64,000 nt of DNA from Candidatus Nomurabacteria bacterium (GCA_020639315.1 JACKGM010000002.1:30321-94320); one strand, 5' to 3'; counted from the first letter of the stretch, positions 2,484-53,281 are shown. Numbers and translations are program-made. Notes: a model not told the origin generated them from the sequence alone.

Positions 2484-2646
2484 TAACCCTGTTGCCATAT
2501 AAACTTGCGAGGTCAAAGCTGATGATTTTTATTCCAGAATAGCAAAACACGACAAAGCATAACAGGAGTTACGCTGCGAAGTGTTTTGCTAGTCTGGAGC
2601 AAAAATGGCAGTTTTGAAGCCGTGAGGTTATATGGCAACAGGGTTA
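2484..2646 (+). mobile_element. MITE-A copy 1 (163 bp, TIR TAACCCTGTTGCCATATAA)
   Basis: Five full 163-bp copies in the window in both orientations; the whole unit is a long imperfect palindrome. Confidence 0.85.
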
Positions 2647-2723
2647 CTATGTCGCTGGCAACAGGGTTGATGATCAAAAGTTAGTTTTGTTTTGGAGACT
2701 CTAATATGCTAAGATAATTTGGT

Positions 2724-4148
2724 ATGGAGAGGGTAGCATTATATCGTAAGTATCGATCTAAATCTTTTGAGGATTTATCTGGTCAGGCATCTATCATTTC
2801 AGCTCTTAGTGGTGCAGTTGAGCACGATAAAATTGGTCATGCCTATCTTTTTGCTGGACCGAGGGGTACTGGTAAAACTTCGGTAGCTAGAATTTTTGCA
2901 CGGATGGTCAATCAGCTTGATTTAGAGACTGATCTAGAAAAGTTGGTTGATATTAGTGAGATTGATGCTGCAAGCAATCGAGGAATAGATGAGATTAGGT
3001 TGCTCAAGGAGAAGGTTAAACTTCAGCCGACTAGACTAAAGTATAAGGTTTATATTATTGATGAAGTTCATATGTTGACCAAGGAAGCCTTTAATGCACT
3101 ACTTAAAACCCTTGAAGAACCACCTAGTTATGCAATTTTTATCCTAGCTACGACCGAAATTCATAAGTTACCAGAGACAATTATTTCTCGCACCCAAAGA
3201 TTTGATTTCCAGCCAATTGGCACGGAGTTAATCGAACAAAGATTGATCTGGATTGCAGAGCAAGAGAAGATTGAGATTAGTAGTCAGGCTACCCAATATA
3301 TTGCAAAGCTCTCAAGAGGGGGTATGCGAGATGCGATAGGGGTATTAGATCAGCTCTCAGGATTTGGGCAGGCAATTGATCTAGAATTTCTTCTGGACTT
3401 TTATGGTTTTATTAAACCCTCAGATCTTGAAAAGCTAACAAGTCTAATCATCGAGGGTGATTTTAGCGCAATTCAATTCCTAGCTCAACTAACTCAGAAA
3501 GGTGCAGATGCCAGACAGCTCAATGCACAGTTGATCGAATACCTGAGAGAACAATTGTATATCAAATCAGATTATCGTTTGATTAAGCTTTTGGACTTAT
3601 TTGTCCAAGCAGAAATGGACTTTAAGCTGATCGATCATCCTAGTCTGGCCCTAGAGATGGCAATTTGGAGATATCTGCAGCAGAGTTTAGACCCAACCGT
3701 CAAAACTAATTCCTTCGTGGTAGACACTTCTGCAAAAAATCCTCCCATAACCAAGCCCAAGATTGAAAAAAAGCCAGAACAGTCCCCGGAGCCTACCAGT
3801 AGAGTCATGCCGAGAATCTCACAAGATTTTGACCCGATTAGGTTGGCAGATCTTCTGGCGATCAAGTACAACTCACTAGCAGCTATTATCAAACAGTCCA
3901 GGTTAAGACTAGATGGTCAAAAATTGATTATTCAGACTAAGTTTAAGTTTTACCATCAGCAGCTGGAGGATCGAGAAAAACAAAAAATTATCCTCGATAG
4001 TCTTGCCCAGATAGGCCATCAGGCAGATTTGATCGAGGTCGTACTGGCGGTCGGTAGTAGTCAAGAAGAGGCGACTTTGGAGTCTGATCATGGTCAAGAT
4101 ATCTTTAGTATTGCCAAAGAGATCTTTAGCTTGGAGGGAACCAGCTAA
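2724..4148 (+). CDS. dnaX: DNA polymerase III subunit gamma/tau
   Basis: GPRGTGKTS Walker A, clamp-loader motifs, 474 aa. Confidence 0.9.
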   Translation: MERVALYRKYRSKSFEDLSGQASIISALSGAVEHDKIGHAYLFAGPRGTGKTSVARIFARMVNQLDLETDLEKLVDISEIDAASNRGIDEIRLLKEKVKLQPTRLKYKVYIIDEVHMLTKEAFNALLKTLEEPPSYAIFILATTEIHKLPETIISRTQRFDFQPIGTELIEQRLIWIAEQEKIEISSQATQYIAKLSRGGMRDAIGVLDQLSGFGQAIDLEFLLDFYGFIKPSDLEKLTSLIIEGDFSAIQFLAQLTQKGADARQLNAQLIEYLREQLYIKSDYRLIKLLDLFVQAEMDFKLIDHPSLALEMAIWRYLQQSLDPTVKTNSFVVDTSAKNPPITKPKIEKKPEQSPEPTSRVMPRISQDFDPIRLADLLAIKYNSLAAIIKQSRLRLDGQKLIIQTKFKFYHQQLEDREKQKIILDSLAQIGHQADLIEVVLAVGSSQEEATLESDHGQDIFSIAKEIFSLEGTS

Positions 4149-51140: not shown

Positions 51141-53151
51141 AGTAGCGATTGTTCATGATTTCTTAGCTCATAAGGATGGTGGGGCAGAACGGGTTTTGCG
51201 TCAACTAATCAAGCTTTATCCTGAGGCTAATATCTTAACACTGACTTTTGATCCAGATCAGTTTTTTGACATTGATCCAGAGAGGGTTAAGACTAGCTGG
51301 TTGAGCCACTTACCAAAATATTTCAAACAAAATCCTAAATATCTACTGCCTCTAATTCGATCGGGGCTTAGAAGTCTACCCTCCAAGCATTACGATCTAC
51401 TGATTATTAACTCATCAGGTTGGAGTAAGAATATCGTAAAAAAGCCTGATGCTACAAAAATCGTTTATTGCAACTCACCAAACCGTCTGATTTGGGATAG
51501 TTGGCCTAGTTATTTTACCAGTAACCTTACTGGGCTATCTATATTTGCCAGGCCAGTTTTTCTTTTGCTCAATTTTTATATATCACGCTTGAGACTTTGG
51601 GATTATGATGCCAATCAGGATATTGATAAACTGATCGCCAATAGTAGCTATATTGCCAAGCGGATTTATAAATACTACAAGCTAAGCTCTCAGATCGTTT
51701 ACCCTCCAGTGGAGTTGGCTACTGAGTCGACTCTTGACTCTGAGAGTCTAGAGGTCAAGGGGGTCAGGCTTGAACCAGGATATTTTTTGTATTTAGGTGT
51801 TCTTAGTAGATACAAGCAAGTTGATATCATAATCGATAGCTTTGAGAGGTTGGGTTCGAATTATCGCCTAGTTATCGCTGGGGATGGTCCTGAGGCAAAA
51901 TCAATTGCCACTAGGGTAGGCAATATTGATAATATTGACTTTTTGGGTCGAGTGTCGGATCAGGAAAAGTTGACCCTGTTTAAGCACGCTCAAGCATTCG
52001 TCTTCCCTAGTATTGAAGATTTTGGGATTACTCCACTAGAAGCTTTGAGTCAGGCTACTCCGGTGATTGCCCGTAATGCGGGAGGACTCAAGGAGACTAT
52101 CAAGCCTGGCACTGGTGTTTTGCTTGATCAAATTAGTATCGAATCACTGACTAAGGCTATTGTAGAATTTGACCCTAGCCTATACTCCGACTCTCAGATG
52201 AAATCAGTTGCCAAGCAGTATTCTAGTAGTCAATTTGATCGAGCTTTCAAAAATTTGACCAAAGATATAGATTTTGATCATAAAAGCAGGGTAGCGATTC
52301 TGGACTGGATGGTTGACCCAATAACAATTGAGGAGTTGCTAGGCAGGGTCAAGCAAGTAGTTTCAGAAGATTATACTCAGCCGATGATTGTGATTAAGCC
52401 TTATGTCGAACACTTCAATCCAAGCAATTTTACTAAGTCTGAGTTGGCTATACTAAACCAGATTGCTACCATCGTGCCAGATGGGATTGCTTTGCAGTGG
52501 GCTGGAGTTTATCTTCAGTACAGTCGCCCCAATCTATTCAATCTGATTGGAAGCTTGGTTGAGTTGGTAGTCAATCCAGCTAGATTTGATCGAGTTTTAC
52601 CTGAGAAATTTGCTGGCAATGATTTTACTTTACCTCTGCTAAAATTTGCGCATAACCGTCAGCTCAGGATATCTATTCTAGGGGGAGATGATTCTCGGGG
52701 CAGAAAGAAGCAACTCAATCAACTATTTGGTAGGTTTGAACAATTACAGGTAATCAATGGCTATTATGATGCCAACCAAGAGCAGGAGATAGTTGATCAG
52801 ATTAACCAGTTTGCACCTGATATTTTGTTTGTGGCGACTGGTATAGGTAAGCAAGAGAAATTTATTATCAAATACTATCAGCAACTTAAGGCAAAAGTGA
52901 TTGTCGGCGAGGGGGGTAGTTTTGACTATGATAGTCTTGGTGGAAGTCAGAGAAGAGCCCCTGGGTTTGTCAAAAGACACAATCTTGAATGGGCCTGGAG
53001 ACTGCTAACCAGTCCTAGTGGTACATCAACTACCAGATTAAAAAGACAGTTATTCATTCCTAAGTTTATCTGGGGGATTCATCAATCTGCCAAAGTCAGC
53101 ACTCCAAGTAGTTCAAATATAGCAAGCTCAAAACAAAACCGGACAATTTGA
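51133..53151 (+). CDS. fusion glycosyltransferase: GT4 (N-terminal) + WecG/TagA/CpsF GT26 (C-terminal)
   Basis: FPSIEDFGITPLEA (GT4 EX7E region) and the GT26-like C-terminal half. ATGACTAA overlaps the upstream stop. The last 11 codons lie in MITE-B2. Confidence 0.7.
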   Translation: MTKVAIVHDFLAHKDGGAERVLRQLIKLYPEANILTLTFDPDQFFDIDPERVKTSWLSHLPKYFKQNPKYLLPLIRSGLRSLPSKHYDLLIINSSGWSKNIVKKPDATKIVYCNSPNRLIWDSWPSYFTSNLTGLSIFARPVFLLLNFYISRLRLWDYDANQDIDKLIANSSYIAKRIYKYYKLSSQIVYPPVELATESTLDSESLEVKGVRLEPGYFLYLGVLSRYKQVDIIIDSFERLGSNYRLVIAGDGPEAKSIATRVGNIDNIDFLGRVSDQEKLTLFKHAQAFVFPSIEDFGITPLEALSQATPVIARNAGGLKETIKPGTGVLLDQISIESLTKAIVEFDPSLYSDSQMKSVAKQYSSSQFDRAFKNLTKDIDFDHKSRVAILDWMVDPITIEELLGRVKQVVSEDYTQPMIVIKPYVEHFNPSNFTKSELAILNQIATIVPDGIALQWAGVYLQYSRPNLFNLIGSLVELVVNPARFDRVLPEKFAGNDFTLPLLKFAHNRQLRISILGGDDSRGRKKQLNQLFGRFEQLQVINGYYDANQEQEIVDQINQFAPDILFVATGIGKQEKFIIKYYQQLKAKVIVGEGGSFDYDSLGGSQRRAPGFVKRHNLEWAWRLLTSPSGTSTTRLKRQLFIPKFIWGIHQSAKVSTPSSSNIASSKQNRTI

Positions 53152-53281
53152 GCTGTACTATAGAGAACTAGAAAGGTAGTTCTTCTTAAGAACCATATCC
53201 ATAGATATGGTGAGTAAGAAAACTAGCTTTATAGACTCTAGAGTTGGGTCAAAAGTCTGGTTTTGTTTTTAACTTGCTATA
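53118..53281. mobile_element. MITE-B2 copy (164 bp)
   Basis: tatagcaagctcaaaacaaaaccggac...tctggttttgtttttaacttgctata. Confidence 0.85.

Follow-up and report, generated by a model that had tools for sequence, protein, structure and literature searches.

A probable superfamily of ~165-bp palindromic miniature elements with different terminal repeats in a 64-kb bacterial sequence

The 64,000-nt stretch analysed here (the window; JACKGM010000002.1:30321-94320 of GCA_020639315.1, deposited as Candidatus Nomurabacteria bacterium) carries five copies of a miniature inverted-repeat transposable element (MITE) designated MITE-A, six of MITE-B (three B1 and three B2), two of MITE-C and two of MITE-D, plus fragments. 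These ~165-bp palindromes are probably members of one diverged superfamily of type II MITEs on a common hairpin scaffold, with a length that is mainly inherited. Inheritance of a common scaffold is favoured as the reason for equal length because families with different ends have the same apex and align in register. The hairpin copies are insertions, as seen from empty sites in a sister genome, from one B copy (B1a) nested in another (B2a) and from duplication of TGAA around the D copy (D1) in a cysteinyl-tRNA synthetase gene.

Relatedness of the hairpin families and their common apex

Elements and fragments in the window, with positions counted from its first nucleotide, are as follows (ORF, open reading frame):
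2484-2646, MITE-A copy 1, 163 bp, ends TAACCCTGTTGCC, with an extra 13-nt end remnant at 2657-2669
8526-8690, MITE-C copy 1 (C1), 165 bp, ends TAGACTTATTCC
8699-8861, MITE-A copy 2, 163 bp, in opposite orientation to copy 1
8873-9200, MITE-B2 copy a (B2a), 166 bp without the nested B1a, interrupted at an internal TATA
8922-9087, MITE-B1 copy a (B1a), 166 bp including TATA on both sides, inside B2a
10158-10320, MITE-A copy 3, 163 bp, intact also in the independent assembly L130
11471-13063, plus strand, cysS (cysteinyl-tRNA synthetase, CysRS), 530 aa, host of D1
11716-11884, MITE-D copy 1 (D1), 161-bp core at 11720-11880, in frame in cysS
21903-22061, MITE-B1 copy b (B1b), 159 bp, with a small apex deletion, overlapping the 3′ end of ORF 21171-21914
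25098-25141, degenerate B-type end fragment
33214-33380, MITE-B2 copy b (B2b), 167 bp, adjoining tRNA-Leu(CAG) and overlapping the 3′ end of ORF 33362-34456 (minus strand)
34524-34567, truncated B1 right end, 44 nt, 100% identical to 53238-53281
34582-34744, MITE-A copy 4, 163 bp
35352-35520, MITE-D copy 2 (D2), intergenic, 161-bp core at 35356-35516, TATA flanks on both sides, stops in 6/6 frames
36286-36451, MITE-C copy 2 (C2), 166 bp, 90% identical to C1
41343-41355, plus strand, solo MITE-A terminal 13-mer (remnant)
41715-41881, MITE-B2 copy c (B2c), 167 bp
44904-45066, MITE-A copy 5 (A5), 163 bp, ~70 nt from tRNA-Leu(TAG)
53118-53281, MITE-B1 copy c (B1c), 164 bp, overlapping the 3′ end of ORF 51103-53151

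The terminal 13-mer of MITE-A, with 12 matches in the window against 1.16 expected from shuffles, delimits two solo ends and five 163-bp copies, which begin at exactly the positions given in a first-pass annotation made from the sequence alone (2484, 8699, 10158, 34582 and 44904) and are mutually 96-99% identical. For the B terminal signature there are 12 matches in the window against 0.02 expected. Counting TA at both ends, the C copies are 165 and 166 bp long; D has a 161-bp core and a net insertion of 165 bp; the B1 copies, with TATA included at both ends, measure 166, 159 and 164 bp, and the B2 copies 166 (nested B1 excised), 167 and 167 bp. The overall range of 159-169 bp is essentially in line with the earlier description, but the individual figures that it gave for B1, B2 and C differ from those measured here. 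Its account of the elements as long imperfect hairpins holds for every copy: each folds over its full length, with arms of ~80 nt, loops of 3-4 nt and minimum free energy z-scores of -6.6 to -19.5. Terminal inverted repeats (TIRs) are found in all families (at least 11 of 12 terminal nucleotides complementary), within an element that is as a whole an imperfect palindrome, and none of the elements contains, in any frame, an ORF longer than itself. Together with the dispersed copies and the empty sites, the TIRs support the assignment to MITEs made previously. Repeats detected by self-BLAST amount to 5519 nt, or 8.6% of the window, close to the earlier tally of ~8-9%. An Rfam scan of the window matched three tRNAs and none of the hairpin elements.

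The narrow length distribution extends to other metagenomes. A BLAST self-palindrome scan over all fetched loci, with contigs from four JGI metagenome series (Ga0136558, Ga0193752/3, Ga0306869), identified many palindromes of 158-174 bp, often several per contig, while those in unrelated control loci span 60-459 bp. A-like elements were found in L065 (164 bp, 74% identity), L128 (165 bp) and L054 (164 bp), and a C-like one in L128 (162 bp); B-like elements of 161-169 bp are numerous, and families E-K, which have other terminal repeats, measure 158-172 bp. With one value per distinct copy or subfamily (n=40), the median is 165 bp (interquartile range 163-166 bp) and 36 of the 40 fall within 158-172 bp, so that the narrow length reported for the window holds in this wider set. 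At L128 4569-5232 (metagenome Ga0306869), A-like (165 bp), C-like (162 bp) and B-like (166 bp) elements lie adjacent within 670 bp, mirroring the C-A-B cluster at 8526-9200 of the window.

B1 and B2 were previously thought to have only a terminal signature in common, but they align from end to end with ~66% identity (global z = 18.8) and, because of this full-length alignment, are one family. BLAST inside the window gave no cross-family match among A, B, C and D, and to that extent the mutual dissimilarity of A, C and D stated earlier stands; profile-based and shuffle-controlled tests with metagenomic relatives nevertheless link the families. Hidden Markov models (HMMs) built from single families match other families in register at the centre: B matches J (E = 6e-6), G (E = 0.002) and the A-like element of L128 (A_L128; E = 0.004), and D matches F (5e-4), compared with a best E of 0.33 among 200 palindrome-preserving shuffles. 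Global alignments between families, each controlled with 300 palindrome-preserving shuffles per pair, gave the following:
D2 and F, z 7.8, score reached by 0/300 shuffles
D2 and B_L128, z 5.9, 0/300
B_L036 and J, z 9.8, 0/300
G and B_L093, z 5.2, 0/300
A2 and Ha, z 3.9, 0/300
C1 and A2, z 4.5, 1/300

The region in common is a conserved apex of ~30 nt, (T)CG-y-CAC/CGTAWC/N4/GWTACG/CTT-y-C-y-C, in which a 6-bp stem (CGTAWC/GWTACG) with a 4-nt loop is flanked by TCAC and CTTC, pyrimidine-rich on one strand. These asymmetric flanks recur in families B, D, G, H and J and, being pyrimidine-rich on one strand, are not a by-product of palindromy. When elements are anchored on the apical loop, identity between families with different TIRs is 0.62/0.57 at offsets 0-4, 0.45/0.48 at offsets 5-9 and ~0.29 beyond 20 nt. 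In A and Ha, which have different terminal repeats, the apex flanks agree at 8/8 and 9/10 bases. Conversely, Ha and Hb have the same H-type ends but an apex that is A-like in the former and B/D/J-like in the latter, and this pairing of the same ends with different apices suggests exchange of ends and scaffolds between elements. Conservation within family B is bimodal, at 0.82-0.98 in the terminal repeats and 0.79 in the apex, with 0.62-0.69 in the arms. Since it is conserved across families and above the arms, the apex may matter for mobilisation, as this pattern suggests. Covariation in the apical stem was rejected as evidence, because any palindromic element is self-complementary and only hairpins had been selected for the comparison. 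With the apex in common and significant cross-family alignments, the families that had been called unrelated in sequence look like diverged versions of one element, the outcome that the first-pass annotation had itself named as contradicting its view.

Insertion sites, parent elements and family D in genes

The sister genome L006 (Logan SRR28595016) is collinear with positions 1-17,993 of the window at 70-79% nucleotide identity, and the same gene block occupies 17,993 bp in the window and 15,219 bp in L006. In the comparison with a sister genome that had been proposed, L006 lacks the element of the IS110 insertion sequence (IS) family, the clusters of repetitive extragenic palindromes (REP) and every MITE of the collinear block, with no inserts at the A1, C1/A2/B2a, A3 and D1 sites. 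Empty sites of A, B and C are not resolved at base level, sister intergenic DNA being too diverged. At D1, base-level comparison is possible: the window reads GCTGAA/CTCGAC...GTCGAG/TGAATTG and L006 reads TCTGAATTA, with TGAA duplicated around D1 and single in the sister cysS, a net gain of 165 nt (55 codons). The intact B2 sequence GGTCTATAACTG corresponds in B2a to GGTC-TATA, B1a and TATA-ACTG, an arrangement that implies a putative 4-bp TATA duplication, or TA plus slippage. TA is present at both ends of every A and C copy. Positions 2570-8636 of the window are 99.97% identical to JAGQMQ010000037 of GCA_020428505.1 (L005), a short-read metagenome-assembled genome (MAG) of the same organism; this contig starts midway through a MITE-A copy and stops midway through a MITE-C copy, so these repeats break up the public assembly, where a count would come out too low.

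Several copies touch genes. The first three bases of C1 (TAG) are the stop codon of ORF 8172-8528, and MITE ends provide stop or terminal codons of adjacent ORFs at 8526-8528, 21903-21914, 53118-53151 and 33362-33380, while C2 (36286-36316) overlaps the predicted start of ORF 35651-36316 (minus strand). Both tRNA-Leu genes (33093-33183 and 45136-45223) lie ~30-70 nt from a MITE, B2b and A5 respectively.

Scanning metagenomes with the B signature TATAGC-N6-AAAACAAAACC gave 120 loci, many of the single matches being, by our own estimate, probably due to chance. Among these loci are eight full-length elements of 996-1161 bp bounded by the inverted signature, each with one ORF (284-369 aa) encoding helix-turn-helix domains and DDE_3 (PF13358), which marks it as an IS630/Tc1-mariner-type transposase. 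Its homologues (619 at E < 1e-30) are mostly on contigs of ~1.1-1.5 kb, as expected for a repeated insertion sequence. Inverted repeats in the eight parents span only 23-39 nt, and the best matches between B ends and parent ends have 81-96% identity over ~28-34 nt; over 30 nt, the ends of B2c match the terminal repeat of a full-length IS630 element in L123 with 90% identity. MITE interiors (28 nt trimmed from each end) gave no significant match to the parent insertion sequences, and a regular-expression scan found the strict apex motif in none of the eight full-length IS copies. Family B is thus a type II MITE as PMC10969869 uses the term, because only its ends match the parents, and its interior and strict apex motif do not. 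L067, a locus from a metagenome rich in B-like MITEs, carries a full-length insertion sequence.

The idea of one mobilising enzyme with a TA/TATA target is borne out for B1 and B2, whose ends match DDE_3-encoding IS630 elements and whose copies are always in TATA, which supports their being served by one kind of enzyme. It may not extend to D: the A and C copies, with TA at both ends, are compatible with TA duplication, but the flanks of D1 and of a further D copy in murI are not TA. The suggested search for a parent insertion sequence with the same TIRs succeeded for B but not for A, C or D. The terminal 19-mer of A matched only four loci in a scan of genome contigs, one of them a 78-bp A-type element in a Saccharibacteria MAG, and the source species with MITE-A is apparently not represented in the contig collection that was scanned. 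Two elements in the window were rejected as MITE parents, the IS110-type element, with no inverted repeats that match any MITE, and an rve-type element at 42299-43713, with unrelated ends. The latter, an IS encoding an rve-domain transposase of 424 aa, has the ends TCTTTTCCAA...GAGCCTAAA and a solo end copy 1 kb away at 44627-44670, and adjoins a 218-bp duplicated block (41484-41701 and 44669-44886, 97% identical).

Family D is found inside genes, essential ones among them. Against CysRS structures and the 477-aa CysRS of L006 (P0001), the 530-aa protein of the window has an extra segment that follows residue ~83, at an empty site in the sister gene. Searching 1.84 billion representative proteins with the 56-residue D1 peptide found seven proteins. 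One is a glutamate racemase (P0241, murI, PF01177; L129 582-1391, on another contig of the same MAG) with a D insert of 84% amino-acid and 91% nucleotide identity in the same frame, with a 161-bp core and TCAA/TAAA flanks. A third case is at the N-terminus of a membrane-protein ORF (L130 1-648, minus strand), on a contig 99.9% identical to the window over 1.4 kb. The in-frame D peptide is LDLRKTSDTPGLP...ILRKSS in all three hosts. D1 is open in three frames, while the intergenic D2 has stops in all. In an AlphaFold2 model of the 530-aa CysRS (mean predicted local distance difference test score, pLDDT, 86.3; predicted template modelling score, pTM, 0.86), the insert (84-138) lies between helices 74-90 and 145-169, and residues 95-139 have pLDDT < 50, consistent with a tolerated surface insertion and a conserved fold. 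Survival of D inside genes is attributed to one subfamily that has an open frame and adds 165 bp, and which would persist there as a 55-residue surface insertion.

Probable inheritance of the scaffold and its alternatives

Each element consists of terminal inverted repeats of ~20-30 nt, two weakly conserved pairing arms and the conserved apex. Terminal repeats differ by family and are presumably each fitted to a transposase of their own, IS630-type in the case of B. Different terminal repeats may have evolved on, or been swapped onto, a common hairpin scaffold, with the length inherited from it and possibly kept by selection on mobilisation. Transposase-bound ends ~160 bp apart, a distance near the persistence length of DNA, would have to be brought together by a putative central hinge, for which a bending-protein site or a small cruciform is a candidate, and a physical constraint on mobilisation is a possible factor in length. 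For A, C and D, mobilisation in trans could be the work of DDE transposases, IS630-like or not, whose genes lie in other parts of the genome. A bolder proposal, only tentatively entertained, is that the ~165-bp hairpin is a reusable, length-measuring chassis, that its apex is a hinge (a site for a DNA-bending protein of the host, or a nucleus for a cruciform) needed for synapsis of IS630-type transposase-bound ends ~160 bp apart, and that new families arise by grafting of TIRs; if true, this would account for the constancy of length and centre across many TIR families of this uncultured lineage.

Several points weigh against a single superfamily with an inherited length. For some pairs little similarity extends beyond the ~30-nt apex: there is none between C and the B group, and one of 300 shuffles reached the A-C score (z = 4.5). 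The loop-anchored identity given above is inflated at offsets 6-15 by the orientation rule (pyrimidine-rich flanks), with offsets 0-5 unaffected. Length is not absolute, given the 78-bp A-type element and others of 126, 142 and 177 bp, and it was the B signature that brought the metagenome loci into the sample. By tblastx, the MITE-rich metagenome contigs have no genes in common with the window. No IS630 transposase was found in the 64 kb by tblastn with the transposase, nor was a parent insertion sequence found for A, C or D (D ends CTCGACTTACGC). IS630 elements duplicate TA, from which both TGAA around D1 and the 4-bp TATA implied by the nested B1a depart; because of the TGAA flanks the D enzyme may differ from the IS630 type, and the B target duplication may be either TATA or TA. 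Family I, represented at L065 2216-2373 (158 bp, ends ACCTGAATCTC), lies between direct repeats of 6 bp (ATTACA), in contrast to the TA/TATA families; ends similar to its own are found on a 126-bp element at L124 10331-10456.

Equal length could instead reflect convergence, the view of the first-pass annotation, if unrelated insertion sequences each spawned a MITE and a physical rule of mobilisation (such as minimal loop size, helical phasing or hairpin extrusion) or a structural role forced ~160-165 bp on all of them. Entirely different terminal repeats in A, B, C and D and the failure of BLAST to connect them within the window would fit independent origins, as would lengths held within ±3 bp among A-like and C-like copies only ~60-75% identical; conservation of the apex above the arms fits a functional requirement. 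We consider this unlikely, as the families resemble one another in register and with statistical support, non-palindromic apex flanks that hairpin shape does not force recur in B, D, G, H and J, the A and Ha flanks agree (8/8 and 9/10) in spite of their different ends, and shorter elements (78 and 126 bp) exist with A-type or I-type ends. Less likely again is a length set by a host function, with the ~165-nt hairpin and its apex acting as RNA or DNA structure, such as a terminator, a binding site for nucleoid proteins or an element for RNase III or mRNA stability. Such a role would account for an apex conserved across families and above the arms and for the many copies that abut or overlap gene 3′ ends, and has parallels in Correia, ERIC and YPAL elements, which are reported to affect mRNA fate, Correia also having a site for integration host factor (IHF) (PMC2229807, PMC10969869). 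Against it, the hairpins have no Rfam match and no T-run after them, copies also occur inside coding sequence, the near identity of the A copies and the nesting of insertions point to recent spread as selfish DNA, and the sister genome lacks the elements at the same loci. Apex orientation relative to flanking genes is unbiased (four same and four opposite among eight oriented window copies), which makes an RNA-strand-specific role unlikely.

A strict coding constraint like that of the Rickettsia palindromic element (RPE), with length set by the in-frame peptide insertion that a gene-dense genome tolerates, is highly improbable as the general cause. D adds exactly 165 nt (55 codons) and is read in one frame in cysS, murI and the membrane-protein ORF, as such a constraint would have it. 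Net insertions of the other families do not come in multiples of three (161 with the TA duplication in A, 163-164 in C and 155-163 in B), their copies have stops in all or most frames, and every A, B and C copy in the window is intergenic or merely touches gene ends. For these reasons the constraint fits D alone. An inherited hairpin scaffold is therefore retained as the favoured explanation.

Other repeats, comparable elements and significance

A separate REP population, resembling bacterial interspersed mosaic elements (BIME), comprises 27 units that form hairpins (TACTGGATCYCCSGTA...) and 34 occurrences of the motif TGTCATCCTCCGAA, some in 28-nt tandem arrays, in these clusters:
2343-2480, 10325-10393, 18227-18687, 24769-25096, 32525-33070 and 36454-36553, REP/BIME-like
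41579-41702, 44764-44890, 53288-53643, 54869-55171 and 61578-61624, REP/BIME-like

Changes in their variable stems are compensatory (AAGTTC/GAACTT, AAAATCC/GGATTTT, ATTCTC/GAGAAT). REP/BIME identity was rejected for the ~160-bp elements, REP being clustered extragenic palindromes of ~20-45 nt with no terminal repeats or target duplication. The IS110-family element (~842-2342; ORF 1047-2303, with DEDD_Tnp_IS110 and Transposase_20 domains) lies within one REP unit, between AAATACTGGAT and TCCCATAAAT. IS110-family elements tend to target REP, which this insertion fits. A lone imperfect hairpin of 83 bp at 19064-19146 (38-nt arms, 82% complementary) has no second copy in the window.

The window has ~42% G+C and encodes DnaX, DnaB, RecR, CysRS, MurC, MurB, PBP2, F-type ATP synthase subunits and UvrC. 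Because the best-named CysRS homologues (~40-46% identity) are labelled Candidatus Saccharibacteria, Saccharimonadales or Patescibacteria, the host appears to be a Saccharibacteria-like member of the Patescibacteria.

MITEs of 100-200 bp that have TA ends and form long stem-loops are well known in bacteria, as are in-frame RPE insertions (PMC2229807, PMC10969869). RUP of Streptococcus pneumoniae is a single family of 107 bp with a long stem-loop and TA-containing targets, whose ends match IS630-family IS (PMC2229807); it is linked to IS630-Spn1 and thought to move in trans (PMC2229807, PMC10969869). Family B resembles RUP in that its ends also match IS630-type elements with a DDE_3 transposase. 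The elements described here differ in comprising several ~165-bp TIR families with a common apex absent from the parent IS, and in a target duplication that looks like TATA for B and TGAA or TATA for D rather than plain TA. RPE are ~150 bp long and form ten families, with 44 insertions in metabolic genes of R. conorii (PMC10969869). Likeness to RPE, judged from their published description, lies in the reduced genome, several palindromic families of similar size and in-frame insertion in conserved genes, for D apparently without destroying the fold. RPE hosts are Alphaproteobacteria, whereas the host here would be Patescibacteria/Saccharibacteria-like, only D was seen in genes, and a parent transposase was identified for one family.

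Correia/NEMIS elements of Neisseria form one family with 107- and 155-bp forms, the latter with an IHF site (PMC2229807, PMC10969869). They share with the present elements a length of ~155 bp, TA ends, terminal repeats of ~25 nt, many copies near genes and a central functional motif, but are not full-length hairpins with a conserved apical stem-loop. Among known elements the 155-bp form, through its IHF site, comes nearest to a central hinge; inspection of the apex here, by eye only, gave no evident IHF-like consensus. YPAL/RU-2 of Yersinia is a 168-bp palindrome with a 56-residue open frame, found fused to genes (PMC2229807). It differs in having no TA termini, in its internal inverted repeats, in target duplications of 3-26 bp and in having no described relation to an IS630-type IS. 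In Tc1-like transposons of the IR/DR type (inverted repeats containing direct repeats), such as Sleeping Beauty, a conserved spacing of ~165 bp separates two transposase-binding sites and a DNA-bending cofactor is needed. These belong to the same transposase superfamily, but are eukaryotic and autonomous, with direct-repeat sites in one long inverted repeat. By analogy, the Sleeping Beauty spacing would offer a precedent for a ruler of ~165 bp, though no more than a lead towards a hinge.

Literature searches returned nothing relevant on the assembly or on MITEs or insertion sequences in Saccharibacteria or Patescibacteria. As far as the literature was searched, three features are undescribed: MITEs of this kind in a genome resembling Saccharibacteria, a family in this lineage that enters coding sequence as RPE do, and many TIR families with one conserved apex and one length. 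Reduced genomes of the Candidate Phyla Radiation are usually called streamlined, yet ~9% of 64 kb here consists of mobile repeats that the sister genome lacks. The elements bear on how MITE families originate, whether a scaffold already present acquires new TIRs by exchange or each parent gives rise to its own family by deletion, and offer a testable length or hinge requirement for IS630/Tc1-mariner synapsis. With in-frame copies in cysS and murI of this genome, and in a membrane-protein ORF from the same or a close strain, family D extends the Rickettsia phenomenon to an unrelated reduced lineage.

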